Below are positions 6,990-50,382 of a stretch of 64,000 nucleotides of DNA, one piece after another. A program made the position numbers and the translations under genes. This DNA comes from Nanobdellota archaeon (GTDB taxonomy: Archaea; Nanobdellota; Nanobdellia; Woesearchaeales; GW2011-AR9), in NCBI GenBank assembly GCA_030697505.1, contig JAUYPX010000018.1, positions 3,265 to 67,264 on the forward strand, written 5' to 3'. Under the pieces are notes generated by a model. That model was not told where the DNA came from. It did no database searches and saw only the letters and a list, made by a program, of their open reading frames with translations. Each line of letters opens with the position of its first letter. Position 1 is the stretch's first letter.

Positions 6990-7394
6990 AACTTTGTTGT
7001 TAAAGGCTTTCAGTAATTTAAAGAAAATCCTGAAAAGCAGCTATCCCCAGCCCTAAAGGGCGGGGATTTACGCAAGAAAAGTGACAGCGATCACTTTTCT
7101 GCGCAGAAATGAGATATTCTTCGCATTTCTTGCGCCGCTTTTCCGAGACGGATTTTCTAAAACAAGAAAAGAAACAAAGATTTCTTTTCTGTTCAGAAAT
7201 AAAGTAGTTTCTTTATTTCATGAATCAAAAATAGCGAAATCCATGCGAGCATTCACTCGCATTCGCACAGAAAGACGACGATCTTTCTGGCGTCCAAGCA
7301 AAGTCGTTGCTTTGCTCAGGACATCCCTAAACATAAATGTTAGGGATTTCTGCTTTTTTGATTTAAGCTTTTAGGAAAAACGGGGACAAAAAAG

Positions 7395-23084: not shown

Positions 23085-23156
23085 AAGTGCGGGAAAGCGT
23101 CTCACCTCGCTCTAAAGAGCGAGGCTTGAAAAGAGACGCTTTCTAATCCCCGCACT
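23085..23156. repeat. about 70 nt nested perfect hairpin in a structured non-coding island
   Basis: Outer stem aagtgcggg/cccgcactt, middle stem aaagcgtctc/gagacgcttt, inner stem cctcgctc/gagcgagg with a taaa loop. Confidence 0.7.
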
Positions 23157-23238
23157 TTGTGACACAAGAAATCAAACGAAGATTTGATTTCTGTGCAGAA
23201 GGACAATGTCCTTCTTGCATAAATAGGCTAGAAAGCAT

Positions 23239-23325
23239 TCGCACAATAAAGCAACGACTTTATTGGCGCATGAGATCAGGAAACTACCCGATTTCAGCGC
23301 AGAAATAAAGTAGTTTCTTTATTTC
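23239..23325. repeat. two AATAAAG-N6-7-CTTTATT hairpin modules (23239-23270 and 23301-23325), diverged members of the structured repeat family seen at 28.6 kb and 40.3 kb
   Basis: cagaaataaagtagtttctttatttc is shared verbatim with 7194-7222 and 40373-40397; gcacaataaagcaacgactttattggc parallels 40476-40500. Confidence 0.7.
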
Positions 23326-23534
23326 TTGCGTCCCAGAAAAATCGTTGTTTTTCTGTGGACATCCTCGTCTTAAAAGACGAGGCTTTCTGCCTATTTAATG
23401 TAAATAAAGAGATAACCTATTCCCTAGACCACAAGAAGGCTGAGCCTTCTGTGCCGAAGGGATGTATCCCTTCGAGCACCAAAAACTTTAATAAGCACAA
23501 TAAAATCGTAAGCCAAAGGGGTGCGTGAAAAAAG

Positions 23535-24170
23535 ATGGTGTCGTTTTTAAAAAGCCTGTTCAAGAAACTGTCATCGAATCCTTTTAGTAAAAAGAGCCAT
23601 ATCAAATTAGGATTGTATGGGCCTCCCAATGGAGGTAAGTCTACCTTAGCCAATAAGATCTGCCAGGACTGGCTGGGAGAAGAGATGTCTACGGTTTCTC
23701 ATATCGCGCACGAGACCAGAGAGATCAAAATCAAGGAGCAGGTCAATATCAAGAACAAGAAAGGCAAGGAACTGACTTTTTCTCTGGTGGACACGCCCGG
23801 TATTTCCACTAAAATCGATTATGAGGAATTCATCCGCAAAGGATTGAAGAAAGTTGAAGCGAAGAAGCGGGCCAAAGAAGCGACCAAGGGAGTGATCGAC
23901 TCCATTAAATGGCTGGATGATATGGATTCAGTAGTAGTGGTCTTAGATGCGACCAAGGATCCTTATTCTCAAGTTAATATTACCATCATCGGAAACTTAC
24001 AGGCCCGTAATATTCCGGTGCTTATCGCCGCTAACAAAGTCGATTTAAAAAAAGCAGGCATTGATACCGTCAAAGCAGCATTTCCGCAGTACAAAGTGGT
24101 GGGAATTTCTGCCAAGTATGGTAAAAATATCGAAGAGTTTTATGAGCAGCTCTTCACTCTTACCAGCTAA
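23535..24170 (+). CDS. small GTP-binding protein of the archaeal GTPase/DUF2073/DUF2072 trio
   Basis: P-loop GPPNGGKST, G3 DTPG, G4 NKVD. Confidence 0.6.
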   Translation: MVSFLKSLFKKLSSNPFSKKSHIKLGLYGPPNGGKSTLANKICQDWLGEEMSTVSHIAHETREIKIKEQVNIKNKKGKELTFSLVDTPGISTKIDYEEFIRKGLKKVEAKKRAKEATKGVIDSIKWLDDMDSVVVVLDATKDPYSQVNITIIGNLQARNIPVLIAANKVDLKKAGIDTVKAAFPQYKVVGISAKYGKNIEEFYEQLFTLTS

Positions 24171-24278
24171 AGAGTTTTCAAGAGCAAGTATTAAAACAGT
24201 AAATGTTAAAAAGGCCAAAAGATTACTATCACTAGGATATAGAGATTAGAAAGAGTTTCCAAAAGAGGTATAGAAGAG

Positions 24279-24674
24279 ATGGTTACGTTTAAGTTTGTAC
24301 CGTATTATGAAATTGAAGGTCTTTCTTCCGCTAAGAGAGTCAATAAACTGCTCAAGATTGTCAAAGAAGACAAGATCGTGATCATGGAAGGACGCCTGCG
24401 TAAGCAGGAAGAAGCCGATTTAATAGAAATCACCATGGAAGAGATTTCCCCCAAGTTTAAAGGGATAGAGTTAAGCGTCATCTATCCCGATAAGGATAAA
24501 CAGGATGCATTGCAAAAACTCAAAGGGATGATGGCGAGTACGTTGCTGGGTGACCGGCAGGGACTTACCATCGTAGGCCCAGCTTCAGTGGTAAAAAAGA
24601 TTGAAAACAATCCTGATAAAATAGAATTATTTACTCGGGAAAGTAGAGCTAAGCAACGGGTAAAGCGCTCATAG
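24279..24674 (+). CDS. DUF2073-family protein (archaeal, usually adjacent to a GTPase and the DUF2072 Zn-ribbon protein)
   Basis: Size and position between the GTPase and the Zn-ribbon protein; assignment by gene order and overall pattern. Confidence 0.4.
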   Translation: MVTFKFVPYYEIEGLSSAKRVNKLLKIVKEDKIVIMEGRLRKQEEADLIEITMEEISPKFKGIELSVIYPDKDKQDALQKLKGMMASTLLGDRQGLTIVGPASVVKKIENNPDKIELFTRESRAKQRVKRS

Positions 24675-24730
24675 GAAGTATATAGTGTTCAATAGAAACT
24701 TATAAAAATAGTAAAATCTACGGTTTCTCT

Positions 24731-25132
24731 ATGCCACATCAATGCGTCCGTTGCAATACCTTCTTTCCTGATGGAGCTGCCGAGATCCTCAAAGGATGCA
24801 GCTGCGGCGCACGCTTGTTCTTTTATATCAAAAAGAAAGATATTGAGTACGGCAAAGAACTGCTTACCAACCTTAGTGAGGAAGATAAGATCAACATCGA
24901 AAAAGATGTGGCAGAAGTGCTGAGCATCCGGGAAGAAGAGCCTGATGCGCCGGTAATTCTTGATCTAGAATCTATCCGCGTGGTAAAGCCCGGGAAATTT
25001 GAAATCGATCTGGTGCATCTGTTCAAGAAAGATCCGTTGATCATCAAGTTGGAAGAAGGAAAATATATGATTGATCTTCCTCAGGCGTTCAAGAAAATGA
25101 AGGAAGATAATGAAGAGAAGGAGAAGAAATAA
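24731..25132 (+). CDS. Zn-ribbon-containing protein (DUF2072-like)
   Basis: N-terminal C4 ribbon (CVRCNT...CSCG) followed by a conserved acidic region; completes the conserved trio. Confidence 0.45.
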   Translation: MPHQCVRCNTFFPDGAAEILKGCSCGARLFFYIKKKDIEYGKELLTNLSEEDKINIEKDVAEVLSIREEEPDAPVILDLESIRVVKPGKFEIDLVHLFKKDPLIIKLEEGKYMIDLPQAFKKMKEDNEEKEKK

Positions 25133-26167: not shown

Positions 26168-27010
26168 ATGAAATATATTAATTTTAACCTAAAAGAACAG
26201 CAAGATTTCATGAAAATAGTTAAAACTAATTCTAATCTTACCTGGAAAGCAATTGCTTATTCTCTTGGGATAAGTAGAAGTATGATCTTTTGTTATCTAA
26301 ACGGAAAATCAAAGATTTCAAAAGAAAACTATGAAAAGCTGTCTGAAATGGCAAAAATTGAACCCCAGTACAATTCTTATGTAATCATAAAGAACAAAAC
26401 TCAAAATATTAACACTCCTAAGCAAATAGATGAAAAACTGGCTGAGTTTATAGGATTATTAGCTGGAGATGGACATGTCTCTAAAATAAATTATGAAATA
26501 TCTGTTACTTGTCATAAAAAATTGGATAAAGATTATGTAAATAACAGAGTAAGTAAGTTATTTCTCGATTTATTTTCAATAGACGCTAAAATTAGAGAGA
26601 GTAAGGAAAACAATGTAGTAAGGTGTTCAGTTCATTCAAAATTGCTTTCAGAATACTTAACCACCAATTTTCTAATACCTCGTGGCAAAAAGAAAGGGAA
26701 ACTTCATATTCCTACACAAATCAGAACTGAAAAAGAACTTTTAATTCCTTACATTAGAGGTTTATTTGATACTGATGGAAGCATTTATTGTCGTAGAAAG
26801 AAAAGCTTAGTCGTTTCAATAATAAGTAGGGATCCAGTATTTCTCAACGAGGTGAAGAATGTTTTAACAGAATTAGGTTATTCTCCCAGCGTGAGCGGAA
26901 AAAACTTATATATTTACAATCAGGAACAAGTCAAGAGATTTATGATTGAAATAAAACCATCAAATCTAAAACATCTTAATAGATACGATAATTTTATAAA
27001 TAAAGTATAA
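26168..27010 (+). CDS. free-standing double-motif LAGLIDADG endonuclease-like protein with an N-terminal HTH domain
   Basis: Two LAGLIDADG-type motifs (FIGLLAGDGHV and RGLFDTDGSI) separated by about 100 aa. The N-terminal 60 aa resembles an HTH (IAYSLGISRSMIFCYLNG). Confidence 0.6.
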   Translation: MKYINFNLKEQQDFMKIVKTNSNLTWKAIAYSLGISRSMIFCYLNGKSKISKENYEKLSEMAKIEPQYNSYVIIKNKTQNINTPKQIDEKLAEFIGLLAGDGHVSKINYEISVTCHKKLDKDYVNNRVSKLFLDLFSIDAKIRESKENNVVRCSVHSKLLSEYLTTNFLIPRGKKKGKLHIPTQIRTEKELLIPYIRGLFDTDGSIYCRRKKSLVVSIISRDPVFLNEVKNVLTELGYSPSVSGKNLYIYNQEQVKRFMIEIKPSNLKHLNRYDNFINKV

Positions 27011-28198: not shown

Positions 28199-28624
28199 TT
28201 ATTTTTTTTCTCGCGCTGGTTCTACCCTCATCACGACGTAACCTAAATTAATCGTTCTTCGTTCTCTAAATAAAACCATTTCATCTTCAATAGGAATTCT
28301 GCCACTTTCATTAATTGCACTTTCTAAACTATCATAGAATTCTTGAGCAGCTTTATCCCATTCTTCCGGGGTTGCACTTGGTGATGGCACTGGTGCTGTT
28401 ACTCCAACATTAAGAAAATAACCCTCCTCCATCGGTCTCCAAGCTTCTGAAAAATTAATTCCATCAAAAATATGAAAATAAACATCAGCATGTCTTCCTA
28501 CGATAAAACCGCCGTCAGGACATCCACTACATAAATCATCAAAATCTCTTCTAGTAAGAACTAATTCATACTTTCTTTTTCCATCATAATTTGATTTTGT
28601 TATTCTCATATTTTTTATATTCAT
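28199..28624 (-). CDS. hypothetical protein; start trimmed to the internal Met because the upstream 26 codons run into the structured repeat
   Basis: ORF 28199..28702, but codons upstream of MNIKNM are read from repeat element C (28626-28897). Confidence 0.35.
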   Translation of the reverse strand: MNIKNMRITKSNYDGKRKYELVLTRRDFDDLCSGCPDGGFIVGRHADVYFHIFDGINFSEAWRPMEEGYFLNVGVTAPVPSPSATPEEWDKAAQEFYDSLESAINESGRIPIEDEMVLFRERRTINLGYVVMRVEPAREKK

Positions 28625-28625
28625 T

Positions 28626-28897
28626 AAAATCTGCTTTTTCCACCAGTGTCCTGAGAAGCGAAGCTTCTGGGATGCCAATAAAGTAGTTTCTTTATTGTGC
28701 ATATTTCACTGGTGGTAAATCGTTGATTTCACCTTGATTGGAAAAAGCAGGGTCGGAAATTCGACCGAGCGAAGCATGAAATAAAGAAACTACTTTATTT
28801 CAGCACTGAAAATTAATCGTTGTTAATTTTCATGTGTTTCTTTTCTTGAGCGACCATGCCACTGGTGTGTTCGCCAGTGGTGTCGAATTTCTTTGAC
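28626..28897. repeat. about 272 bp highly structured element, copy C; inverted copy of 40277-40548
   Basis: Reverse complement matches copy D end to end at about 95% identity. Contains several hairpins: ccaccagtg...cactggtgg, two AATAAAG..CTTTATT modules, ccactggtg-tgttcg-ccagtggtg, and a long-range pair ctgctttttcc/ggaaaaagcag. Confidence 0.85.
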
Positions 28898-28906
28898 TAT
28901 TCTCAG

Positions 28907-31900
28907 TTACAATTTCTCAAAATAAGCGCTAAACTCTTCATCCTTAACTTTGAATGTTCCAGTATGCTTATACTTCCTCTGCGGTTCATACAGTACAATA
29001 TCAAAGACATGCGCGCCTACTTTGAGCTGCATCTCATTCTTTAACGAAGTTAACATTTTCTTCATCCCAGCACTAACTTTCAGATAAAGCACAATCTTAT
29101 CAGTCTTCTGCATTTCCGCTTTTTTGCGCAGCTCCTGCACGTTGCGGGCAGCTTCCCGGGCAAATCCTTCTGCTTCTAGTTCTCCCGTTCGCTCGGTATT
29201 TACCAACACCGTGATATCTTTGTATTCAGATAAAGTATAATTGTGCGGCGCTTCACGTTCTACGATCACCATTTCCGGGGTAACTTCCACCGTCTGGTTG
29301 TTGATGGTGAAAGAATATTTTCCTTCTTTCTGAAGATGATTCATGATTGACTGCGGACTATCTAAAGCTAGTTTAGCGATGATCTGTGGGGATAATTTTC
29401 CGAAGGCTGGACCGATCTTAGCATAGTCCGGTTTTATTTTAAGCTGCATCTCTGTACTGTGTGAAGCGGCAGTAATCACTTTGGCATTCAGCTGGGAGCA
29501 TACCACATCTTGTAATTTTGAGACTACGCTTTTTACCACAGGATTTTCGCTGATGACCTGCACTTCTTGTACCGGCCATCTGACCCCTAGTTTTGCTTTC
29601 TCCCGGGCGTGCAGGCCGGCCTGGATGATTCCTTGCGCCAAGGACATCTGCTGTTCTAATTTTTGATTTATTTTTTTAGGATCTGCTTTCGGCCAGGCAT
29701 AGTGCATGATGCTTTCTTCTTTGAGCTTGAATTCATCTTTCAAATTTAGGTAGATAGCTTCAGAAACGAAGGGCGCGATAATGCTGAACATCTTTACCGA
29801 TTCCAGCAACACCTGTCCGATAGTATAGACACAAGCTTCTTTCTCTTCCTCGCTGCCGGTCGAGCTTTTTTCGCGGATCATCTGAATGTACGTTCGTGAT
29901 AATTCTAAGAATAATTCTTCCAGCGGAGCGATAACTTCATCCAAGCGATATTCATCCAGCAGTTTGGTGACTTGCTTGATCACTGAATGTAATCTGGAAA
30001 AGATATATTTCTCTTCCATCTCAAAATTCTTTTCTACTGCTGTAGCTTTAAGAGAGTAAGAATCTATTCTGGTCTCCTTGGCCAGGTTGATTAAAAATTT
30101 GTGAGTGTTCCAAAGCACAGTAAGGTTGCGCACTTTAGCTTTGCATTCTTCCCAGCTGAAATTGATATCTTCTCCGGCATTGGTCTGGCACAGGTAATAG
30201 CGCAGGGTATCAGCACCGTGCTTGTCGATCAATTCATACGGCGAGATGATGTTGCCCAAGGATTTAGACATCTTTACATCGTTAACATCAGTGACAAATC
30301 CATTCATGTAGACGCTTTTGAAGGAGGGTTTGTTGAAAGCCAAAAAGGAAGCGACCATCAGCAGATTGAACCAGCCGCGGACTTGATCCTTTCCTTCCAG
30401 GATAAAATCAGCAGGGAAGAGCTGCTCAAATAATTTTTCGTCTCTCGGGTAATTCAAGCAGTTCCAAGAGACCGTACCGGCATCGATCCAGACGTCTAGT
30501 ACATCCGGAATTCTGCGATATACTTTCCCGCTTTTTTTGACCAAAATTTTATCGATGTCCGGAATATGCATATTAGTCACTTTCTGTCCAGAAAGTTTTT
30601 CTAATTCTTTGACGCTGCCGACCACCAGATAATCTCCGTCATCTGCCTGCCAGATGGGAACAGCAGTCCCCCAGTAGCGCTGTTTGGTGATGGAATTATC
30701 CCGTAGATTTTCCAGCCAAGACTTAAAGGCGTGTTTCGCAGCCTGAGGATTCCAGGATATTTTTTCATTGGCGGCAATCATCTTCCCCTTAAGATCTTCT
30801 ACTTTGAAGAACCATTGTTTTGTCGTTCTGAAAATGACCGGCTCATGGCTTCGTTCTCCATGCGGATAATCGTGGCTGTACGATTCTTTGGCAACTAAGA
30901 CTTCTGCTTCCTGCAGCGCCTGGATGAATTTTTTATCGTCTGTTTTTGCTTTCCAGCCGCTGAATAGGCCGAAGTTATCAAAGTGTCCCGATTCATTCAC
31001 GCAGTTAAACGGCATTAAACCATTACGATAGCCTACTTCATAATCCTCAGGGCCGCAGCCGGGAGCGCAGTGGACTAAACCGGTACCGGCGCTGTCATCA
31101 ACATATTCTTTGCTGAGAAGGATGGAAAATAATTTCTGATTTTTTTGCAGTTCCGGGGGTAGAGATTTCTGAGTGTTTAATGGATGGAGATATTTTTTTC
31201 CTTCTAACTCAGAACCCTTAAACTTGCGGACAATCTTGTAATCATTAATTTTTGCTTTTCCTGTAAGATGCCCGACTAAATTTTCTGCAATAACCCATTT
31301 TTCATTTTTGGCATGTTCAGTATTTACCATAACTTCCGCATAGGTAAGATCGGGATTAACCATGATCGCTAAGTTAAGCGGAATAGTCCAGGGAGTGGTG
31401 GTCCAAACCAAATAAAATTTTGTTTTGTCTTCTTTGCTTTGGAATTTCAGGTAAATAGAAGTATCAGTGATTTTCTTATATTCCAATTCGTGTTTAGCTA
31501 CGGCAGTCTGGGTAGCGGCATCCCAGTGCATGGTTCGCAATCCTTGGTAAAGCCTTTTTTTTTCATAGGCTTGCTTGATCAGCCACCATTCCGCTTCCAT
31601 GAATTCTTTCTTGATGGGCTGATAGGGATCAGAAAAATCTAAGGTCGCGCCTAAACGCTGGAAATCCTGGTCCATCTTATGCATCATCTCGATGCAAAAT
31701 TTTTCACATTCCTGGGTGAATCTCTTTACGCCGAATCTCTCGATATCTTCTTTATCGCGAAGCTCCAACTTAGCCATGGCTTTCTGTTCCGTAGGAAGGC
31801 CGTGCATGTCGTAGCCCATGCGGTCCCAGACCTTGAATCCCTGAGCGCGCTTATAGCGGAGCATCATATCTTTCAAGCTCATATTCCAGGCATGTCCTAG

Positions 31901-32056
31901 ATGGATGTGTCCAGAAGTATAAGGAGGCCCCTGCAGAAAATAGAATTTCTTTCCTTTCTGGTTGCGCTTGCGTAATGAATCTAAAACTTTATTTTTCTTC
32001 CAGAATTCTAAGATCTGCGGTTCAAGCTGCTGAGCATTATAATCAGGAAATTTCAT
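28907..32056 (-). CDS. ileS: isoleucyl-tRNA synthetase, archaeal/eukaryal type
   Basis: HIGH region PPYTSGHIHLGHAWN, KMSKS as KMSKSLGN, CP1 editing-domain blocks, 1049 aa. Confidence 0.9.
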   Translation of the reverse strand: MKFPDYNAQQLEPQILEFWKKNKVLDSLRKRNQKGKKFYFLQGPPYTSGHIHLGHAWNMSLKDMMLRYKRAQGFKVWDRMGYDMHGLPTEQKAMAKLELRDKEDIERFGVKRFTQECEKFCIEMMHKMDQDFQRLGATLDFSDPYQPIKKEFMEAEWWLIKQAYEKKRLYQGLRTMHWDAATQTAVAKHELEYKKITDTSIYLKFQSKEDKTKFYLVWTTTPWTIPLNLAIMVNPDLTYAEVMVNTEHAKNEKWVIAENLVGHLTGKAKINDYKIVRKFKGSELEGKKYLHPLNTQKSLPPELQKNQKLFSILLSKEYVDDSAGTGLVHCAPGCGPEDYEVGYRNGLMPFNCVNESGHFDNFGLFSGWKAKTDDKKFIQALQEAEVLVAKESYSHDYPHGERSHEPVIFRTTKQWFFKVEDLKGKMIAANEKISWNPQAAKHAFKSWLENLRDNSITKQRYWGTAVPIWQADDGDYLVVGSVKELEKLSGQKVTNMHIPDIDKILVKKSGKVYRRIPDVLDVWIDAGTVSWNCLNYPRDEKLFEQLFPADFILEGKDQVRGWFNLLMVASFLAFNKPSFKSVYMNGFVTDVNDVKMSKSLGNIISPYELIDKHGADTLRYYLCQTNAGEDINFSWEECKAKVRNLTVLWNTHKFLINLAKETRIDSYSLKATAVEKNFEMEEKYIFSRLHSVIKQVTKLLDEYRLDEVIAPLEELFLELSRTYIQMIREKSSTGSEEEKEACVYTIGQVLLESVKMFSIIAPFVSEAIYLNLKDEFKLKEESIMHYAWPKADPKKINQKLEQQMSLAQGIIQAGLHAREKAKLGVRWPVQEVQVISENPVVKSVVSKLQDVVCSQLNAKVITAASHSTEMQLKIKPDYAKIGPAFGKLSPQIIAKLALDSPQSIMNHLQKEGKYSFTINNQTVEVTPEMVIVEREAPHNYTLSEYKDITVLVNTERTGELEAEGFAREAARNVQELRKKAEMQKTDKIVLYLKVSAGMKKMLTSLKNEMQLKVGAHVFDIVLYEPQRKYKHTGTFKVKDEEFSAYFEKL

Positions 32057-32159
32057 GAAGGTTGAGAAGAAGAGAGGTCTTTAAAAATTATTCCATCAGA
32101 TTATATTTATACGATTAAAGAGTAGCAAGGGAACAGTCAAATAAGATCACATATAGTTT

Positions 32160-33347
32160 TTATCCCTTTAAAGCCAGGTAAAGCTCTCGCATCTTTCTAT
32201 TCTTTCCTAGTTTTTCCAATGCTTGCGCTTCCAGCTGCCTGATCCGTTCACGGCTTAATCCATGCCTATCGCCTATCTGCTGCAGTTTGAGAGGTTCTTC
32301 ATCAAAGCCAATACGTTTATTGATAATATCCAACTCCATGGGGGTTAAAATTGATTTCAAAGTACGGTGAACGATCTCTTTTTGTTGATCTCGAAATACC
32401 TGCTCCAAAGGTGAAGCTGAAGCTTTGTCCTCAAGGACGGAATGAAAACTTAGGCCTGGAAAGTCATCTTCCTGAGTTTGAATTTTGTCTAACGAAAAAG
32501 GTTCGGCATCCAGCAAGGCATCCACCACTACTCTAGCAGGAAATTTAGTAGCCTTAACTATCTCTTCGACGCTTACATGGTCCTGGCCCTTTTTCTGTCG
32601 CAGCTGGATATGGGCCGTTTTTACTTTGTTAAAAACTGCTTCCGCCTGTACAGGTATGCGGATAGTTCGGCTGGTGTTGCTGATGGCCCGGCCTATTTCC
32701 TGCCGTATCCACCAAGTAGAGTAAGTAACAAATTTGAAACCTTTTCTATAATCAAAACCATCTACGCCTCGATAAAGACCTTCGTTTCCTTCTTGGATAC
32801 AATCAAGCAAACTCATTTTACCGCGGCGGGCATATCTCTTAGCGATAGAAACAACAAAACGTAAATTGTGTTTCGCAAGTAAGTCTCTCGATTCTTCCCA
32901 GACGGAAACCAGTTCTTCCAACTGTTCCCGTTTCTTATTGATTTTGCTGAGACTTGATCTGGAACGCCCATAAAGTACCTGCTCTTCATCCTGATTGAGT
33001 TTTTGCTGATAGGCCCCTACCACCGTTTTGTAGGTGCTGGTAAAGGGGACAATCTGACGCAATACTTCGATACGCCCATAGAATTTCTTTTCTGAAGTTG
33101 CTCTGACAGTTAAAAGGCGTTTCACTGCCTGTTTATTTTTCTTCTCCTCTTGCGGCAGCTGATCCAGAAAATAAGTTGTTAAAAATGCCGGGTCGGATCG
33201 GAATACCGTCCAGAGAATCTTGTTGCCATTTCGCTCAATCTGCTGAGCTGCGGCAATTTCTTCATCACGATTGAGAGGAGAATATCCTCCAATTTCTCGT
33301 AAATAAGTCTCAATGTTCTTACCGGTTACAGTAGGTTTTATCATCAT
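32160..33347 (-). CDS. bacterial-type RNA polymerase sigma-70 family factor (regions 1.2, 2, 3 and 4 all present)
   Basis: Region 1.2 YLREIGGYSPLNRDEEIAAAQ. Region 2 NLRFVVSIAKRYARRGKMSLLDCIQEGNEGLYRGVDGFDYRKGFKFVTYSTWWIRQEIGRAI. Region 3 TIRIPVQAEAVFNKV. Region 4 HTH TPMELDIINKRIGFDEEPLKLQQIGDRHGLSRERIRQLEAQALEKL. Confidence 0.8.
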   Translation of the reverse strand: MMIKPTVTGKNIETYLREIGGYSPLNRDEEIAAAQQIERNGNKILWTVFRSDPAFLTTYFLDQLPQEEKKNKQAVKRLLTVRATSEKKFYGRIEVLRQIVPFTSTYKTVVGAYQQKLNQDEEQVLYGRSRSSLSKINKKREQLEELVSVWEESRDLLAKHNLRFVVSIAKRYARRGKMSLLDCIQEGNEGLYRGVDGFDYRKGFKFVTYSTWWIRQEIGRAISNTSRTIRIPVQAEAVFNKVKTAHIQLRQKKGQDHVSVEEIVKATKFPARVVVDALLDAEPFSLDKIQTQEDDFPGLSFHSVLEDKASASPLEQVFRDQQKEIVHRTLKSILTPMELDIINKRIGFDEEPLKLQQIGDRHGLSRERIRQLEAQALEKLGKNRKMRELYLALKG

Positions 33348-33382
33348 TCAATCCATAAACACCTAAACCACACTAAAAACCT

Positions 33383-34108
33383 CTAATTAGACTTAAGAAT
33401 CAGTATATTTCCACGTCCCTTTTTAATCTTTTCTACTTTTCCTTTATGTTCCAGCTCAGTTACAATGAGGCTTACTTTGGCTTCAGAGAGGTACATCATT
33501 TCCTTGCGCAGCTCTTTCTGGTTGATCCGGCCGTCATGTTTTTTGATGATCTCTAACGCTTGATCAAGGTATCCTGGCTCCTTAGCCAGCTCTTCCTTAT
33601 GCTGCTCCATAGTTTTTTGGCTATCTTCTTTGATTTTTTTACGGAAGACCAGGAGAGAGCCGTATTTTTTCCTGGTGTAGATGATCCTTGCTAGGAGTAC
33701 AGTAAAAATGATTCCAGCGATGATCCAGGACCATAAAGGAAGGGGAGTTTCTTCGGTCTCCAGAGGAAGTTCCTGCTGGGTCTCCTGCCATAATTCGTCT
33801 TCTTCTACAAAATCTGGCAGCAGGAAAAGGTCTAAGATGTATTCTCCTTGAGCGGAAGTGATTTCTACTTGTTCGCTGATAATATACTGATCATTTTTAG
33901 CGGTGAGGGCGTACTTTCCGACTGGTAAATCAAAGGAATAGCTGCCGGTTTTAGCTAAATATTTCTGCTGGGGAATGGTGTTGATCTCGACTAAAACATC
34001 TTGAGCTACATCTAAATTTTCATCGTAGATGCTGCCTTTGAGGGTTGCTGCGGAAGCTAAAGGAGTCATGAGTAAGATGAATAAGAAAATGCTTAGTCCG
34101 TGCTTCAT
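33383..34108 (-). CDS. membrane-anchored putative transcription regulator: signal peptide, extracellular carboxypeptidase-regulatory-like beta domain, one TM helix, cytoplasmic winged HTH
   Basis: Signal peptide (LMTPLASAA), TM WSWIIAGIIFTVLLARIIY, and a C-terminal wHTH-like ALEIIKKHDGRINQKELRKEMMYLSEAKVSLIVTELEHKGKVEKIK. Confidence 0.45.
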   Translation of the reverse strand: MKHGLSIFLFILLMTPLASAATLKGSIYDENLDVAQDVLVEINTIPQQKYLAKTGSYSFDLPVGKYALTAKNDQYIISEQVEITSAQGEYILDLFLLPDFVEEDELWQETQQELPLETEETPLPLWSWIIAGIIFTVLLARIIYTRKKYGSLLVFRKKIKEDSQKTMEQHKEELAKEPGYLDQALEIIKKHDGRINQKELRKEMMYLSEAKVSLIVTELEHKGKVEKIKKGRGNILILKSN

Positions 34109-34228
34109 GAAGCGTATTACTCTAAAAGGATATAAAAAGATATCGGGAATAAGTTCAAAATAAAGGTTTTAATCTTTCTAAACCTTCCTAAAGTGTCCTA
34201 AAGTATCCTGTAAAGTATTCCCAAAAGT

Positions 34229-35575
34229 ATGTTTAAAAAGAAGTTAGGCCGCGTAGTTCTCATAAATTCAAACGGAGGTCACAAAATGACATCATTCAAA
34301 CAAAAATTAAGCGCCATGCTGGTGTTGTCGCTCTTTTTATTGAGCGTCTTGCCAGCAGGATTAGCTGATGAAGGAAAAAACATGGTAGATGTTGATGCAG
34401 AAGTTCATCTAGAATCAGATGCAGCTGATGCAGAAGTAAAGACAGAATCAAAGACCGAAGTGGAATCTAAAGACAATGATTCTGAGACAGAAGAAGAAGT
34501 AAAAGTTAAAACAAAAGTAAGAGATGGTTCTCTTAAAAGTTCAAAATTAGTTAAAAGAGAAGTAAAAGAACTGAAGAGAGATTTACACCAAGCTCGGGAA
34601 CGATTAGAAGAAGCGAAAGAGCGCTATAAGGAAGCAAAGGAAGAGCAGCGCGAACACCGCCAGAAAGTGCTGGATTTAGATAAAGCAGCGAAGCGCTGTA
34701 ATCCTGAGAAAAGAGATTGTGCGACTCTAAAAATGGAATTGCGGACAGGAGTCAAAAATCATCTGCTCAAATCAGTTCAAGTAGTGGAACGGTCTTTGGA
34801 AAAGCTTACCAAGACTATTGAAAAGATGGAAGACTTGTCTGAAGAAGAGAAAGAAAATGCTTTAGCCCTAGTTGCTGATCTAGAAGCAGAATTAGATGCG
34901 CAGAAAGCAAAGATCAACAGCTTTACCGATGAAACTTCTAAGGAAGAGATCAGAGCTGCTATCAAGGACTTGAAGGAATTGAACCAAAAAGTGCATAAAT
35001 TGCAGCGACGCTTGGTCGGCTTGTTAGTAAACGCTAAGCTTCAGGTCTTAGTGGAGAAGCAGGCTGAGCTCCATGCTGGAATGCAAGCACGCATTGATGC
35101 TTTAGCAGCAACTGGCGCAGACGTATCTGAACTAGAAGCAATCCTCGCTGAATTTGACGCTAAAGTTGAAGAGTTAAAGCAGGATTACCAAACTGCCCAG
35201 CAGAAATGGATGGAAGCAAAAACTGCAGAAGACTTTGACCAGTTCAACCGCAATTTACGGGAAGCTCAGCATCAAGTCAGAAAAGACTTGCAGGATCTTA
35301 AGAAGATTCTACGAGATTTCCTTCATACACACAAGGAACTAAAGGAAGGCTCGGAAGAAGATGAAAACGAATCAGAGAAGGAAACAGAAAAAGAATCTGA
35401 AGACTCTGAGGAAGATACTGCTGAAAATGAGTCAGAAGACGCAAATGATTCTGATGATGAAGAAAGCGAGGATGCAGAAGAAGCTGATCATAAGAACGAA
35501 AGCGAAGAGTCTGATGATGAAGCTGAAAGCAACACCACTTTGGAAGCTAACACCAGCGCAACAGCAACTGCATAA
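34229..35575 (+). CDS. secreted coiled-coil protein with a highly acidic Asp/Glu/Ser-rich C-terminal tail
   Basis: Signal peptide, long heptad-like K/E/L-rich region, and an acidic low-complexity tail (35340-35540). Confidence 0.4.
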   Translation: MFKKKLGRVVLINSNGGHKMTSFKQKLSAMLVLSLFLLSVLPAGLADEGKNMVDVDAEVHLESDAADAEVKTESKTEVESKDNDSETEEEVKVKTKVRDGSLKSSKLVKREVKELKRDLHQARERLEEAKERYKEAKEEQREHRQKVLDLDKAAKRCNPEKRDCATLKMELRTGVKNHLLKSVQVVERSLEKLTKTIEKMEDLSEEEKENALALVADLEAELDAQKAKINSFTDETSKEEIRAAIKDLKELNQKVHKLQRRLVGLLVNAKLQVLVEKQAELHAGMQARIDALAATGADVSELEAILAEFDAKVEELKQDYQTAQQKWMEAKTAEDFDQFNRNLREAQHQVRKDLQDLKKILRDFLHTHKELKEGSEEDENESEKETEKESEDSEEDTAENESEDANDSDDEESEDAEEADHKNESEESDDEAESNTTLEANTSATATA

Positions 35576-35577
35576 AG

Positions 35578-35817
35578 GTGAGCAAGATGAAAATCGTACG
35601 AATTTCATTGTTGCTGCTTATCTTAGCAGTAGCTATAGTCAGCGGCTGTAAAGCTGCTCAAGACATCTCCAGCGAGCCAGGAACCTTGTTAAGCGAAGGA
35701 GCAAATCCTTCCGAGCAAGCGGTGGACAGCGGATTACAGGAATTAGATGAGATCGATTCCTTAGCCGAAGAGACCGACTTAGGCTTAGAAGAGCTGGAGA
35801 AGATAGAGTTAGAATAA
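35578..35817 (+). CDS. small acidic lipoprotein
   Basis: Signal peptide with lipobox-like IVSGC. Confidence 0.3.
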   Translation: MSKMKIVRISLLLLILAVAIVSGCKAAQDISSEPGTLLSEGANPSEQAVDSGLQELDEIDSLAEETDLGLEELEKIELE

Positions 35818-35824
35818 GATTTTT

Positions 35825-36643
35825 TTATTTTTTATCTTTTTCTTTTTTCTGATATTTAATTGCTTTATACCCAGCCTGTTGCAGACTGTTTTCTGGGTTA
35901 CCAGCCAGCAAAGCCCCGTAATGAGCCTGTTGTTCTCCTACTGAACGCATAATATGGGTTTTTTTATGTTTAAATCCCCGTTCTTCAAAAATAGGAGTAA
36001 GATATTTGGCCATATCGGTTCGGTCTTCTTCAGAAAGTATACCCTCCAAGGCCTTCTTATTTAAAAAAATATTGTAACTTTTCTTTACCCGCTCAGACAT
36101 ATTTTTTAATTCATCAATAAGCTCAACCTTTTTCTTCCCTTTTAATCGTTTAATGTATGAATCGCTTAAGATGTTTTGTGGGTTTCCTTCGTCATCAAAA
36201 TGAAACTGGCCCATAAACTGCCCTTTTAACTCCCGTAATTCTTTTTTATCCATCTTATTTTCTTTCTGAGCATGATCCATTGCTTTCTTAAATCCGCTCC
36301 CCATAGCTTGCTGCAGGAATGTGTCAGCATAGGTGTCTAATATTTCCGCTAATTTATCCTCATCCTCTAACTTTTCATCATCTTCTTTGACATGCTTATC
36401 TAATTTTTTATATGCTTCATTAAACGCTCCAGGATAGTCTTTCTCTTTTCCTGGTCTTCCGAAAATAGTATAATGAGCGTGATGGGCAAAAACCGCACCA
36501 TGAATACTCTCTGGATCATAGAATTCTTCAAATTTCTTAATACGATCCTTGAATTCTTTTCCAGCTTTATGATGATATTTTTGATAGTCTGCAATAATTT
36601 CTTCTACGGTCTTGGGCTTCTTCTTATCACCTTTTTGAGACAT
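35825..36643 (-). CDS. hypothetical protein
   Basis: ORF, K/E-rich; no motif recognised. Confidence 0.3.
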   Translation of the reverse strand: MSQKGDKKKPKTVEEIIADYQKYHHKAGKEFKDRIKKFEEFYDPESIHGAVFAHHAHYTIFGRPGKEKDYPGAFNEAYKKLDKHVKEDDEKLEDEDKLAEILDTYADTFLQQAMGSGFKKAMDHAQKENKMDKKELRELKGQFMGQFHFDDEGNPQNILSDSYIKRLKGKKKVELIDELKNMSERVKKSYNIFLNKKALEGILSEEDRTDMAKYLTPIFEERGFKHKKTHIMRSVGEQQAHYGALLAGNPENSLQQAGYKAIKYQKKEKDKK

Positions 36644-36725
36644 GGCTTTGATAAGCTAAACAGAATATTTAAAGATTTCTCATTTGGGCAGAGTAATAAC
36701 TACTTAGTAGTTACACAACAGAAGG

Positions 36726-36733
36726 TTTAAAAA
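36726..36733 (+). promoter_or_regulatory. archaeal TATA-box-like element about 27 nt upstream of the ATG at 36756
   Basis: tttaaaaa preceded by gg at the canonical spacing. Confidence 0.35.
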
Positions 36734-36755
36734 GGATTGGCAAATTAAGCTTAAG

Positions 36756-38252
36756 ATGGTACAGGATCTCGTTAAAACCAGAGAAGAATTAGAAGAAATA
36801 GCTGGCGCTTTGGCCTCTGAAATTGCTAATCCGAATGAAAATATTGTCTCTCGATATCTCAGAGTAATTTATGATCAAGTTTCCTTTATGAACGGAAAGA
36901 AATACCAACAAAGAGGAGGCGATGGCAACATCAACAAGGAGTTCATGGATCGGGGTATTTACAATCAATGCCCTATTGACGACCTAGTGCCTTCTCATAA
37001 TTTTCGCGATCTGGTAGTAGCCAGGGATTTGCGTATGACCAGATTCCCTTTCGCGAAGAAAAATGTCGAATTACCACCAGAACAAGAAGTTTTCTTTGAA
37101 GAAATTCCTTCTGAGATAGACTTCTACAACCTCGAATTAGCCGAGTTTACAAAAGAACATCCAAACACGCGCTTCACCAGAGTTTTTGCAGTAGAGCAAC
37201 GGGTTATAGTAAATTCCAAAGGCGGAGTAGCAATCCAGTCTATCCCGTTTTTTAGAATTTCTTATTCGCATGGTTATGAACCCATCCCTACTTCCAGAGA
37301 ACTCGCAGCAGTGTGTACTTCTGCTCAAGACATCCACAATTATACCAAATTAATAGCGTTCATCCCTGATCCCACCATTGATAAAAAAGTTAAAAAGGCG
37401 TCATCTTTTTCAGAAGCTTTCCATGAGCTTTACCTCATATCTAAGTTACGCCATGGAAGTTTAGAGGAAGCAGGAATACCATTAGCAGGATTATATGATG
37501 TAGTAGTTTTAACCGGGACACCCGCTCATGAGGTTTTTGGCCATCATTTTGAGGAGCCGGTCAGATTCTTAAATTATGGTGAATCAGCCACTTTCAAGGC
37601 AGGACAGGATATTAAAAATGATACTATTACTTTGAAAGATGATCCTCATCAACGTATAGATAATTTACGGGTACAAGGTTTTACCCATGTTGATGCCTAT
37701 GGAAGAAAAAGAGAAACACGAACGCACATCAAAGATGGAAAATGCCTTGAGTTTTTAGGAAGCGAATACGCTGATCCAGAAATGTTACGACCTTATTTAA
37801 ATGTGGATACAAATATGTTTTTGGGCAATGCTTCTCAGCACCTAGATGGTCGTTTCCCACAAGCTAGAATGAGCTGCACCGTCTTAGACGGGAAAACAGA
37901 AGAGATTGACCTTGAAGGAAAAATTCTAATTGTGTCCCAAGAAGGCCATACTTCTCCACAGGATAAAACATATTCATTAGGTGCAAGAGAAGCATATGTA
38001 GTCAGAAATGGAGAACCACAGAGAATTGTTCCTCTACGAATAACAGGAGCAATAAATCAGGCCTTAGCAAACGTCACATTATTAGAAGATTGGAACTATA
38101 ACATTGGTTGCTGTGGAAAACCCTCTCCCTTAGATGAAGGATATGCTACCATTATTGTATCTGAACTTACCAGGAATCAATTATGGCGTCAACAGCAAGT
38201 GTATCCTGTACCTGTTTCTCCCGATCACTTACAGATATTACGCGGCTATTAA
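36756..38252 (+). CDS. TldD/PmbA-family (peptidase U62) metallopeptidase-like protein
   Basis: HExxxGH-type motif in TPAHEVFGHHFEEP and a length (498 aa) typical of TldD. Confidence 0.45.
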   Translation: MVQDLVKTREELEEIAGALASEIANPNENIVSRYLRVIYDQVSFMNGKKYQQRGGDGNINKEFMDRGIYNQCPIDDLVPSHNFRDLVVARDLRMTRFPFAKKNVELPPEQEVFFEEIPSEIDFYNLELAEFTKEHPNTRFTRVFAVEQRVIVNSKGGVAIQSIPFFRISYSHGYEPIPTSRELAAVCTSAQDIHNYTKLIAFIPDPTIDKKVKKASSFSEAFHELYLISKLRHGSLEEAGIPLAGLYDVVVLTGTPAHEVFGHHFEEPVRFLNYGESATFKAGQDIKNDTITLKDDPHQRIDNLRVQGFTHVDAYGRKRETRTHIKDGKCLEFLGSEYADPEMLRPYLNVDTNMFLGNASQHLDGRFPQARMSCTVLDGKTEEIDLEGKILIVSQEGHTSPQDKTYSLGAREAYVVRNGEPQRIVPLRITGAINQALANVTLLEDWNYNIGCCGKPSPLDEGYATIIVSELTRNQLWRQQQVYPVPVSPDHLQILRGY

Positions 38253-38355
38253 CTAATTTTATTAAGTATACTGATTTTTAAGTGCCTGACCAAAACGTCC
38301 CACTTTGGAAAGAAATAAATATAAGCATTTAAAATATAGATTAAAAACACAGTAA

Positions 38356-40263
38356 TTGTTGTCGCAGGAGGAAAATATCATGGCTAAAAAATCAAAATCT
38401 ATGCAACCTACAGAGATCAAAGCGGCCGAAACCGGCTTGCCTTTACCTTCTAATCTTCCTAACATCCCTCCGGAAATGGAGAAGAAGCTGAAAGCTATCA
38501 AAGATAAATTAGACAAATTCAAAGAGAAAGTCCTGGAAAAGTTTGGAGATTATATCGTAGGCATCGCTCTTCTGCCTCCGGAAAAGGCACAAAAAGAAGG
38601 GGAACAGGGCAAGGAAGGGGAAGAAAAACCCGATGATAAGAAAGATGAAAATAAGATCCATGTCTTAGTAGTTGTTGATGACACCACTTCGCAAAAGATG
38701 ACTAAAGATGAACTGTTCAACAAGTTCTCCTCCGCCGTAAAGCAGATCGGTGAAGAAGTAGACAAAGATATCGCTTCTCAATGCGCATTATTAACGGACC
38801 TATGGCAGAATTGTTATGATGCTAAGTATGATCTAAACCGGCTTATCTCCATGAGCGCGCCATTGCATGATACCGGAATGTTAGCAGCCATCAAGATCGC
38901 AGAAATCCACAAAAGCATGGTCATCAAGAAGTTTGAGAAATACATCCTCAGCTACGTTTTAGCTGGTTCTTTGACGCAGGGAAAAGCAACTCCTACCTCT
39001 GACATTGATGTATGGATCGTCATCGATGATACTGACGTCAAGAAGATGAGCAGATTAGAATTGAAAGATAAACTGCGGGCGATCATCATCGGCATGGGCG
39101 CCGAAGCCGGGGAGATGACCGGCATAAAAAATAAACTGAATATCCAAGTCTATATCTTAACTGACTTCTGGGAATCGTTGAAAGAAGCAAATCCGATCAT
39201 CTTTACTTTGCTGCGCGACGGAGTCCCTTTCTACGACCGCGGCATTTTCATGCCCTGGAAGCAGCTGCTGAGAATGGGGCGGATCAAGCCCAGCCGGGAA
39301 GCGATCGATCTGTTCATGAGCACCGGCGAACAAAGTATCAGCAGAGTAAAAGGCAGATTAAAAGAGATGGGCATGGAAGATACTTATTATGCGATCTTAA
39401 CTCCCTCGCAAGCAGCGATCATGTTGTATGGATTGCCGCCGCCCACACCGCGAGAGACTCCTGACGTGCTGGAAGAGATCTTTGTTAAGAAAGAAAAGAT
39501 GCTGGAAGCGGAATATGTAAAAATCCTCCGCAATAACGTGGACATCCGCAAGAAGATCGAGCACGGCGACAAAAAAGAATTGAGCGGAACAGAATTAGAC
39601 AAATTGATCAATGATGCAGAAAAGTTCCTGAAACGGATCAAGGAATTGTTTACCGAGATCGAAGCTAAGCATGATGAGCGAAGCATTATCATGCTCTACG
39701 ATGAAGTCATGACTATCATTCGCGATGTCCTCAAGCTAGAGGGAATCGAAAAAGCGCAGGATACGCAATTAATTAAATTTTTTGAAGATGAATTGGTAAG
39801 CACCGGAAAAGTGCCAGCGAGATTTTTGCGCGATCTGAACGAGATCATCGAAGCCAAACAGAAGCATGACCAGAAGAAGCTGACCAAGACCGACATCGAA
39901 AAAGCAAGAAAAGGCAGTTCCGGCTTGTTTAAGTTCTTAGTCGAGTATATGCAGCGCAAGCGCGGGCAGGAAATGGAACGCGCCAGAGTTCGGGTAAAGC
40001 ACGGCGAGAAGTTTGGTGAAGTCATTTTACTGGACACTATAGCTTTTGTCATTCATGACTTGGATGCAAAAGAGCAGCAGATTGAGAAAGCTGCTATCCG
40101 AGAGAATGGAAGCCTCGGCCCATTAGAGAAAACTAATCTGGAAGAATTTGAGAAGGAGTTAGCAAAAGCGAAATTTCCTAAGCGCGTATTTGTGAAAGAA
40201 CCTTTGTTCGAGAGTTTGAAAGGCATCTTCGGGCATGATGTGGAAGTGCTGCTGCAATACTAA
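38356..40263 (+). CDS. large protein with Pol-beta-superfamily nucleotidyltransferase domain(s) and a C-terminal helical, possibly HEPN-like, region
   Basis: Minimal NTase signature GSLTQGKATPTSDIDVWIVIDD. An earlier NTase-like stretch HVLVVVDDTTSQ lacks the Gly-Ser motif. C-terminal helical region IEAKHDERSIIMLYDEVMTIIRDVLKLEG. Confidence 0.4.
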   Translation: MLSQEENIMAKKSKSMQPTEIKAAETGLPLPSNLPNIPPEMEKKLKAIKDKLDKFKEKVLEKFGDYIVGIALLPPEKAQKEGEQGKEGEEKPDDKKDENKIHVLVVVDDTTSQKMTKDELFNKFSSAVKQIGEEVDKDIASQCALLTDLWQNCYDAKYDLNRLISMSAPLHDTGMLAAIKIAEIHKSMVIKKFEKYILSYVLAGSLTQGKATPTSDIDVWIVIDDTDVKKMSRLELKDKLRAIIIGMGAEAGEMTGIKNKLNIQVYILTDFWESLKEANPIIFTLLRDGVPFYDRGIFMPWKQLLRMGRIKPSREAIDLFMSTGEQSISRVKGRLKEMGMEDTYYAILTPSQAAIMLYGLPPPTPRETPDVLEEIFVKKEKMLEAEYVKILRNNVDIRKKIEHGDKKELSGTELDKLINDAEKFLKRIKELFTEIEAKHDERSIIMLYDEVMTIIRDVLKLEGIEKAQDTQLIKFFEDELVSTGKVPARFLRDLNEIIEAKQKHDQKKLTKTDIEKARKGSSGLFKFLVEYMQRKRGQEMERARVRVKHGEKFGEVILLDTIAFVIHDLDAKEQQIEKAAIRENGSLGPLEKTNLEEFEKELAKAKFPKRVFVKEPLFESLKGIFGHDVEVLLQY

Positions 40264-40276
40264 TTTTATCTTTAAT

Positions 40277-40548
40277 GTCAAAGAAATTCGACACCACTGG
40301 TGAACACACCAGTGGCATGCTCGCTCAAGAAAAGAAACACATGAAAATTAACAACGATTAATTTTCAGTGCTGAAATAAAGTAGTTTCTTTATTTCATGC
40401 TTCGCTTGGTCGAATTTCCGACCCTGCTTTTTCCAGCCTAGGTGAAATCATTGATTCACCACCAGTGAAATATGCACAATAAAGAAACTACTTTATTGGC
40501 ATCCCAGAAGCTTCGCTTCTCAGGACACTGGTGGAAAAAGCAGATTTT
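40277..40548. repeat. about 272 bp highly structured element, copy D; inverted copy of 28626-28897, lying between convergent gene ends
   Basis: See copy C. Contains gctgaaataaagtagtttctttatttcatgc and cacaataaagaaactactttattggc hairpin modules and the ccactggtg-aaca-caccagtgg hairpin. Confidence 0.85.
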
Positions 40549-40552
40549 ATAT

Positions 40553-50381: not shown

Positions 50382-50382
50382 T

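Follow-up and report, generated by a model that had tools for sequence, protein, structure and literature searches.

Inverted 273-nt repeats around ileS in a DPANN archaeon: probable recent copies of a PATE-like non-autonomous mobile element

Copies C and D and the segment between them

We analysed a 64,000-nt stretch (the window) of contig JAUYPX010000018.1, from the Nanobdellota archaeon assembly GCA_030697505.1, in which the isoleucyl-tRNA synthetase gene (ileS), a sigma-70-like gene and their neighbours lie between two long inverted repeats, here called copies C and D. The source of the window is a DPANN archaeon (Woesearchaeota/Nanoarchaeota). The closest relatives of its IleRS (28907-32056, minus strand) are found, at up to 87% identity, in metagenome-assembled genomes (MAGs) labelled Woesearchaeota, Nanoarchaeota or Nanoarchaeia, and other window genes are archaeal housekeeping genes (prefoldin, NMD3, ZPR1, TYW1, TFS, FtsY, MetRS, ThyA and DHFR). 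The bracketed 11.4 kb encodes, by Pfam, IleRS, a sigma-70-like protein, a DUF7343 winged helix-turn-helix (wHTH) protein, a TldD/PmbA-like protein and a nucleotidyltransferase (NTase)-domain protein, in line with what an earlier, sequence-only reading of this DNA had listed. Copy C begins 10 nt beyond the end of ileS, and on its other side it directly adjoins a small open reading frame (ORF) whose ATG is at 28624; copy D occupies the entire spacer between two convergent genes, the stop codon of the NTase gene ending at 40263 and that of FmrO beginning at 40553. The same reading had regarded the longer ORF 28199..28702 as a spurious extension; it indeed runs 26 codons into copy C, and its first in-frame ATG beyond the element is that at 28624.

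A repeat search of the window gave C and D as 273-nt reverse complements (97% complementary) with 11,379 nt between the arms. In direct comparison they are identical at 264 of 273 positions (96.7%), with nine mismatches and no insertions or deletions; the longest mismatch-free tracts are 92 and 86 nt, the nine mismatches are at 28717, 28722, 28723, 28735, 28737, 28738, 28767, 28854 and 28873 of copy C, six of them falling within 22 nt (28717-28738), and the identity stops abruptly at either end of the arms. The near-identical inverted repeats described from the sequence alone are thus real, with arms that agree to within one base with the positions first given. The predicted folds of the element strands have energies of -108 and -94 kcal/mol (z = -9.4 and -8.4 against dinucleotide shuffles) and consist of two closed multibranch domains. 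All sub-features named earlier (the AATAAAG modules, the ccactggtg hairpin and the long-range pair) were found again, and the anatomy is as follows.

28625..28897, putative top strand plus: copy C, C/D-type, 5' TAAAATCTGC ... TTTCTTTGAC 3'
40277..40549, putative top strand minus: copy D, C/D-type, 96.7% identical to C
28631..28750, plus: 5' domain of C, closed by the long-range stem CTGCTTTTTCC (28631-28641) with GGAAAAAGCAG (28740-28750)
28642-28648 with 28707-28713: 5' near-terminal palindrome ACCAGTG...CACTGGT, inside the 5' domain of C
28649..28706, plus: nested insert 1, hairpins 28650-28671 and 28676-28697 within the loop of the 5' near-terminal palindrome
28714-28733: hairpin inside the 5' domain of C
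28751..28891, plus: 3' domain of C, stem GGAAATTCGAC / GTCGAATTTC (28756-28765 with 28882-28891) around a hairpin pair and the 3' palindrome
28773..28838, minus: nested hairpin-pair module made of unit U and an inverted copy of it, with hairpins at 28777-28802 and 28807-28832
28676-28697 and 28777-28802: AATAAAG-N6-CTTTATT hairpins of copy C
28859..28880, plus: 3' near-terminal palindrome CCACTGGTGTGTTCGCCAGTGG, then a 17-nt tail TGTCGAATTTCTTTGAC
28859-28880: CCACTGGTG/C(A/G)CCAGTGG hairpin, with one mismatch in C and perfect in D
40336..40401, plus: nested hairpin-pair module in copy D, 88 bits with covariance model R1

A dispersed family with nested hairpin pairs

In a perfect-hairpin scan, the hairpins of the window were concentrated in four intergenic places, A (about 7.0-7.4 kb), B (23.1-23.5 kb), C and D. 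The window is otherwise compact, and these four places are its largest spacers. When metagenomes were scanned with a 20-mer taken from one hairpin, 87 loci were obtained, mostly from groundwater, and blastn against these loci showed A, B and D to be mosaics of modules common to many of them. The full-length 273-nt element was absent from 81 genome loci and the 87 metagenome loci, which held scaffold relatives and modules only, and a viral-contig scan with the 20-mer gave a single chance match in an AT-rich giant-virus bin. An uncluttered C/D-type scaffold of about 145 nt occurs in L100 (7782-7926) and twice in L114 (L114a and L114b), a 433-nt version occurs in L104, and L109 and L127 carry relatives of the 5' domain. 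In total, the 5' end of the C/D type was seen in at least eight contexts besides C and D (among them L100, L102, L104, L109, L114 twice and L127), and in five of them (L100, L102, L104, L114a and L114b) the 3' tail was also present.

The ends of these elements are well defined. The copies start with TAAAAT(C/A)TG(C/A)TTTTTCC, the initial TAAA being kept in all but one (TATA), and full copies end with (T)TTTCTTTGAC (TTTGAC at the 3' end), while the short one-hairpin form of L102 ends with TTTTTGAC. A CCACYRGTG...CACTGGTGG palindrome lies 17 nt from each end: in C and D, CCACCAGTG...CACTGGTGG starts 17 nt from the 5' end and CCACTGGTG...CGCCAGTGG ends 17 nt from the 3' end, and the same arrangement is found in L100, L104 and L114. 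No terminal inverted repeat was found in the C/D type, the 5' end TAAAATCTGC having no match to the reverse complement of the 3' end GTCAAAGAAA, and the flanks of nine C/D-type copies differ from one another and show no duplication. A classical miniature inverted-repeat transposable element moved by a DDE transposase was considered and rejected, as the 273-nt element and its scaffold lack terminal inverted repeats and show no target-site duplication in the flanks compared. The copies are 145-433 nt long and non-coding, the only ORF overlap being the spurious 26-codon extension described above. The closing stems of both domains are maintained by paired changes: that of the 5' domain of C covaries with its counterparts in L114 and L104 (ATGATTTTTCC/GGAAAAATCAT), with CTGC...GCAG against ATGA...TCAT, and that of the 3' domain shows compensatory changes against L100, from GAAATTCGAC/GTCGAATTTC to GAAAACCGCC/GGCGGTTTTC.

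Compared with this scaffold, C and D contain two nested inserts. Insert 1 is not present in the uncluttered scaffolds L100, L114a and L114b, whereas L109 and L127 carry an additional 59-62-nt hairpin pair at the same site. Insert 2 consists of a hairpin pair and adjoining sequence in the 3' domain, and its module (28773..28838; 88 bits with model R1) is not found in the L100 or L114 scaffolds. Since C and D carry both inserts and differ at only nine of 273 positions, the 273-nt composite must have been copied as one unit, recently, and C and D are most likely two recently made copies of one composite element. A loop inversion was also tried as the source of the clustered C/D differences and rejected, being not more parsimonious than substitutions.

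The nested hairpin pairs have a regular structure of their own. The commonest hairpin is a 33-nt unit of the form xy-C-A-WGAAA-N3-5-loop-N3-5-TTTCW-G-y'x', in which the side of the bulge is linked to the six-base loop: a 5' bulged A goes with MARCKA in 14 cases and a 3' bulged T with TMGYTK in 14, with no crossed combination. The module is made of two opposed units having two bases in common and measures 59-62 nt (53 nt in one case), and the 59-62-nt pairs have 7-nt inverted ends and 2-3-nt junction repeats. A covariance model of the module matches throughout the family and in about 8 of 80 unbiased ileS-centred loci. Across 32 distinct copies the stems covary almost wholly by Watson-Crick changes, with three G.T in 640 cells; for example, the pair 13-26 is TA in 7 copies, CG in 10, GC in 13 and AT in 2. 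In six comparisons of filled and empty sites, entire pairs (53-62 nt) were present or absent, with 2-3-nt junction repeats, and in L032 (9749-9872) a different hairpin holds one pair in its loop. Of the 32 copies, 25 have identical dinucleotides on their two flanks (shuffle mean 6.3); the flanking dinucleotides are also complementary to the central dinucleotide in 26-27 of the 32, and this complementarity of flank and centre is not explained by simple target duplication.

Elements A and B are related to each other and form a sibling type (A/B) to C and D.

7018..7366, minus: element A, TTAA followed by ATCAAAAAAGCAGAA and hairpin 7323-7347 (left-end-like), right-end-like hairpin 7043-7067, six unit hairpins alternating
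23085..23403, minus: element B, related to A, left-end-like TTAAATAGGCAGAA and hairpin 23363-23382, far boundary approximate

Their fold z-scores are -10.8 (A) and -14.3 (B). In at least 10 contigs, A-type elements end sharply between flanks that have no relation to one another, and the only inverted terminal match common to their ends is TTAAA/TTTAA; L030, among the closest relatives (87% IleRS identity), has an A-type end. When an approximate IS608 TnpA sequence was used in tblastn, an IS200-type tnpA ORF was detected in L114 (8259-8700, E = 2e-16, HUH motif DHIHVI) beside ORFs that look, by eye, like those of ribosomal proteins S13 and S4. This ORF has 171 homologues at E <= 1e-10, of which the best 120 all match PF01797, which validates the hit; one homologue carries the annotation Woesearchaeota IS200/IS605 transposase, and most are on contigs of about 1 kb. 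Six copies of the corresponding insertion sequence (IS; L114 and L172-L176) have a left end of TTAA or TTAC, ATAAcTTCTGAGCAAGAA and a hairpin ATCCCCACGCTTTAGCGTTGGGGAT with a bulged T, and a right end with hairpin ATCCCCRCCMTTTAKGGYTGGGGAG followed by GTCAA. The minus strand of A-type elements, in the window and in their metagenome siblings, aligns to both IS ends, with TTAA, ATCAAAAAAGCAGAA and ATCCCTAACATTTATGTTTAGGGAT on the left; the minus strand of B has the left-end leader of the A type and the IS; and hairpin ATCCCCGCCATTTATGGTGAGGGAT of the A-type element in L102 is nearly identical to the right end ATCCCCGCCATTTATGGCTGGGGAG of the IS in L173. The leader and both hairpins of the A/B type thus align to the tnpA-bearing IS of L114, L172 and L173, and at the level of sequence similarity these alignments link the A/B type to a tnpA-bearing IS200-family element in Woesearchaeota contigs. 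For the C/D type, the likeness to the IS goes no further than its general anatomy and a short stretch of the 3' tail, where TGTCGAATT compares with TGTCAATTA. In all four window elements, the strand that aligns with the IS top strand, namely A(-), B(-), C(+) or D(-), is also the better-folding one, with 9-10 G.U pairs compared with 0-3 on the other strand.

Proposed movement of the elements, known counterparts and other explanations

Taken together, these data make it probable that C and D, far from marking the ends of an island, arose recently from one non-autonomous mobile element resembling a palindrome-associated transposable element (PATE), the gene-less relative of IS200/IS605 insertion sequences. 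Small hairpin pairs nested into the scaffold of about 145 nt and enlarged it to 273 nt in this genome, and the composite was then copied to a second site. A Y1 (HUH) TnpA acting in trans would recognise the folded near-terminal hairpins on the top strand, which would be excised as a single-stranded circle and inserted next to an AT-rich tetranucleotide (TTAA or TAAA), and C and D would be separate insertions, in opposite orientation, into two permissive intergenic spacers. For the C/D type, mobilisation of the top strand by a Y1 transposase is the step we infer by way of the A/B type. IS200/IS605 elements are known to favour the template of the lagging strand. The bracketing itself would be a by-product of separate insertions, since C and D are two of four elements in the window and dozens occur elsewhere in unrelated contexts. 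Furthermore, from the known mechanism, if the elements are of IS200/IS605 type, inverted copies have their top strands on opposite strands, and Y1 could not pair their ends to move the segment.

Several points weigh against this proposal. First, no transposase, integrase or recombinase domain was found by Pfam among the approximately 70 window genes, so that the 64 kb holds neither tnpA nor tnpB. Second, no autonomous element with CCACYRGTG hairpins of the C/D type was found, the tnpA-bearing IS matching only the A/B type; the transposase queries, IS608 TnpA and RAYT, were approximate, and the three tnpA contigs tested in Logan all come from runs other than SRR13727529, the run that yields the window contigs discussed below. 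Third, truncated copies from metagenomes show less strand asymmetry (72 against 46 G.U pairs), and copy counts are biased by the selection of metagenome loci with a family-derived 20-mer. Finally, the absence of B and C from L003 and the mere 16 nt that L032 has at the D site favour insertion, but L003 and L032 offered no clean empty sites for B, C and D, the spacers being too diverged or filled by other cargo for target duplications to be read; the statement that C and D lack target duplication therefore rests on the flanks of different copies.

The kind of element proposed here is already known, and in a narrow search we found no published description of it in DPANN archaea. PATEs were defined in Haloquadratum walsbyi (Dyall-Smith et al. 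2011, PMC3119063), and non-autonomous IS200/IS605-derived elements are also reported in Geobacillus (PMC10055086). Like PATEs, C and D lack transposase coding, terminal inverted repeats and, as far as the flanks of different copies show, target duplication, have similar palindromes near both ends and a short conserved terminal oligonucleotide, and occur as heterogeneous copies; in the A/B type, the near-terminal palindromes also match those of a tnpA-bearing IS. In contrast to PATEs, the elements here live in a DPANN archaeon and have a scaffold folded into two closed multibranch domains, whose long-range stems covary; the partner, matched for A/B only, is of the IS200 type with tnpA alone, not of the IS1341/tnpB type. 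A second parallel concerns the hairpin pairs. The SMR-A small mobile repeats of Haloquadratum have PATEs and IS605-type elements as targets, entering the palindromes close to their ends, and their mobilisation was called enigmatic (PMC3119063). As in that system, PATE-like elements here contain nested small elements with inverted repeats at their borders (CAWGAAA...TTTCWTG), and some of these occupy the loop of a palindrome close to the end, as insert 1 of C does, or of another hairpin (the L032 pair). The hairpin pairs differ from SMR-A in being half as long (53-62 nt, SMR-A being about 110 bp), in consisting of two opposed 33-nt units of fixed polarity (bulged A, loop MARCKA) and in having junction repeats of 2-3 nt that are also complementary to the central dinucleotide, and they share no sequence similarity with it.

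Bacterial repeats offer more distant comparisons. REP, BIME and REPIN sequences are mobilised by RAYT Y1 transposases (PMC3733652, PMC3116915), and they resemble our units as imperfect palindromes of 20-40 nt with a bulge that occur singly, as inverted pairs and in mosaic intergenic clusters, in their link to the IS200/IS605 transposase family and in the recognition of REP hairpins as single-stranded DNA. The GTAG/CGTC tag of REP (PMC3733652) is absent from the hairpin foot here, where the units read xyCA-WGAAA ... TTTCW-G and GTAG appears only in the stem-loop junction of one variant. No RAYT gene flanked by units was found, and an approximate E. coli RAYT query gave no significant match in 1.9 Mb of loci. 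Unlike in REP, it is the loops that are conserved and not a terminal tag, and the host is an archaeon. BOX, RUP and SPRITE of Streptococcus pneumoniae (summarised in PMC10969869) are likewise modular structured intergenic repeats with variable internal modules that insert into one another; BOX and RUP differ in having terminal inverted repeats, being thought to be moved by a DDE enzyme, and in their unrelated sequence and bacterial host.

We tentatively raise the possibility, which we rate below even, that the hairpin pairs are a distinct class of very small mobile DNA, defined by the 33-nt polar unit with its bulged A, six-base loop and covarying stems, which colonises the hairpins and loops of DPANN IS200/IS605-type elements and is moved by the same Y1 transposase or by another enzyme acting on single-stranded hairpin DNA; the scaffold might, in addition, act in trans in a guide-RNA-like manner. 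If this is true, it would be a second, independent case of the attack of small mobile repeats on PATEs seen in haloarchaea, with units small enough for in vitro work. With their strict polarity and the three-way dinucleotide relation, the hairpin pairs would be a compact system in which the movement of PATE-targeting small repeats can be studied.

Among the other explanations, the one that fares best is a functional structured RNA, either a non-coding RNA gene (e.g. a TnpB-type guide scaffold) or a terminator, insulator or stabiliser acting in cis in a 3' or 5' untranslated region (UTR). The fold z-scores of -8 to -14, the covariation of the long-range stems between copies, the excess of G.U pairs on one strand, the T-rich tracts close to the ends and the positions of D, abutting two stop codons, and of C, after the ileS stop codon, would all suit such a role, which we nevertheless consider unlikely. 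In copy C it is the strand antisense to ileS that folds better, the elements are not at orthologous sites of close relatives, and the hairpin stems covary nearly exclusively through Watson-Crick pairs, as described above. Rfam 15 gave no window hit at the gathering score, and when the D and B regions were searched with E values as high as 10, the hits were at chance level only. The distribution of the hairpin clusters points the same way: 72 of 97 are non-coding, though only about 15% of the sequence is, and their spacers are tandem in 37 cases, convergent in 11 and divergent in 11. A terminator or 3'-UTR function was therefore rejected as a general explanation, given equal numbers in divergent and convergent spacers and the antisense orientation of the better-folding strand of C. 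When the 308 ORFs no more than 800 nt away from hairpin units were clustered, no recurrent protein family emerged, which leaves a cis-encoded enzyme unsupported. This intergenic habit, with convergent and divergent spacers used equally and no recurrent neighbour, fits tolerated selfish insertions better than terminators or promoters. In addition, relatives are without these repeats at the C and D sites, contrary to the conserved terminators that the sequence-only reading had allowed for. Transposition of single-stranded DNA accounts equally well for the folding, the covarying stems and the G.U bias.

The repeats could also make the 11.4-kb segment invertible, homologous or site-specific recombination between C and D giving two genome isomers. 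The arms are 96.7% identical, and their 86-92-nt perfect tracts, long enough for RadA-type recombination, make C/D a plausible substrate for homologous recombination; the six differences clustered at 28717-28738 might be a conversion patch. We regard such inversion as improbable here. No recombinase gene was found by Pfam in or near the segment, the window has the orientation seen in relatives without the repeats, and the family consists mostly of single unpaired copies. Moreover, in the Logan assembly of run SRR13727529, which was made separately from the window's own assembly, three contigs match the window at 100% and end 74, 27 and 30 nt inside the repeats, and C-specific variants appear beside the ileS flank; reaching only 27-74 nt into the repeats, these contigs do not phase the flanks. 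In the 74-nt case, the contig stops at the point where 31-mers no longer cover the last C-specific variant. Such ends inside the repeats are what a k-mer assembler would be expected to give at a true multi-copy repeat, and the matches at 100% indicate that the repeat is not an artefact of a single assembly.

Far less probable still is a composite transposon or acquired island, a possibility raised from the sequence alone, which would end in C and D and would have carried in ileS, the sigma-70 gene and their neighbours. Two repeat copies of mobile type do surround a segment with a bacterial-type sigma-70 gene, and three parts of the segment, the sigma-70-like gene, the TldD-like gene and ORF 35825-36643, have a patchy distribution in the relatives. 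The synteny, examined by tblastn of window proteins against fetched loci, speaks against it. L003, L026 and L032, whose IleRS proteins are 84%, 86% and 63% identical to that of the window, have in common the gene order w45092, w43222, w42910, w41467, FmrO, NTase, (variable genes), w34229, wHTH and ileS; downstream of ileS, L003 and L032 keep w27599, w25538, w24731, w24279, w23535 and more genes, whereas the L026 contig stops at ileS and does not cover the w27599-side flank. Relative strands are as in the window throughout, and the 273-nt element is not present in any of the three. As relatives without the repeats keep both order and orientation, the 11.4 kb between C and D is, judged by this collinearity, ordinary vertically inherited core chromosome in its ancestral orientation. 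The NTase gene, w34229, the wHTH gene and ileS are collinear in these relatives together with both flanks (in L026, up to ileS), sigma-70 homologues occupy the same wHTH-ileS position in L030, L031, L034 and L017, the GC content of the segment (0.36-0.46) is like that of the flanks, and mobility genes are lacking in the window. An assembly artefact, with a collapsed or duplicated repeat or a chimeric join producing the C/D pair, is hardly credible: the contigs are metagenome-derived and short-read assemblers break at the repeat, but three of the four C/D junctions are reproduced at 100% in the separate Logan contigs, both joins agree with the gene order of relatives, and C and D are distinguishable at nine positions.

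The spacers that hold C and D, compared across the same loci, are hot spots of variation. Between ileS and w27599 there are 135 nt in L003, two ORFs in L002, and in L004 and L005 an ORF pair read by eye as a ribbon-helix-helix antitoxin and a PIN toxin; between FmrO and the NTase gene there are 16 nt in L032 and three small ORFs in L003. The small ORF 28199-28624 (minus, about 136-141 aa) was inserted with or beside copy C, between ileS and w27599, and is lineage-specific, with no Pfam match and no homologue in any fetched locus. The sigma-70-like gene (32160-33347, minus), which lies between the wHTH gene and ileS, has Sigma70 regions 1.2, 2 and 4; it is not in L002, L003, L004 or L026, and its homologues in L030, L031, L034 and L017 are divergent (29-57% identity). 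Sigma-70 genes in Woesearchaeota were reported earlier (Castelle et al. 2021, PMC8204110).

The reading of C and D as PATE-like elements has several consequences. First, it removes a false lead, as the ileS/sigma-70 block would not be a recently acquired island and the repeats around it would be selfish DNA. Second, streamlined Woesearchaeota genomes would carry active-looking, gene-less elements derived from IS200/IS605, four of which fill the largest spacers in 64 kb. Third, such repeats break short-read assemblies, seed spurious ORFs and could drive rearrangements, and their recognition improves the assembly and annotation of MAGs.

Other observations in the window and related contigs

Beside element B, an operon (23535-25132, plus) encodes a GTPase (MMR_HSR1) and the origin-associated proteins OapB and OapC; it comes directly after 22848-23534, which is the longest intergenic region of the window. 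There may be a replication origin nearby; an orc1/cdc6 gene was not seen in the window. Within that intergenic region, also beside B, 22880-23035 is structured, with a closing stem GGAAAGCCGCC ... GGCGGCTTTCC and eight G.U pairs on one strand against two on the other, and is not in L003. A free-standing LAGLIDADG endonuclease gene (26168-27010, plus) lies in a patch with a GC content of 0.30 and has a homologue at the same place in L002 (83% over the part compared), but not in L003. A scan for tRNA and tmRNA genes found none in the window.

The following features lie elsewhere in the window.

10-321: HepT-like RNase at the window start, toxin-antitoxin-like
1116-2283, minus: two tandem paralogous lipoprotein-like genes (210 and 175 aa), the source of two direct-repeat families
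about 13408-13710: MazE-type antitoxin domain
47751-56732, minus: three successive large ORFs (876, 1098 and 791 aa) with no Pfam domain and, by eye, secreted or surface-like N-termini
50383-51053: MNT (NTP_transf_2) and HEPN genes, toxin-antitoxin-like
60831-60864: isolated perfect 14-bp hairpin AAAGGAATTAGTTT GTTCGA AAACTAATTCCTTT after the DoxX gene, not of the family unit type

Two further observations concern related contigs. L114 contains another repeat of about 120 nt (CTTAACTGGGTCTAATACCCCATAG...CCCAGTTAAG...) in two copies, at 1100-1230 and 8840-8960, one of which adjoins a family hairpin. In L005 (14509-15680), the w25538 homologue is inverted relative to the window and L003, with a sequence resembling, by eye, a tRNA with an intron on one side (about 14690-14830) and a hairpin element closed by GTGAGTGATGGC/GCCATCACTCAC on the other (15440-15680), and this inversion may be a small rearrangement associated with such elements.

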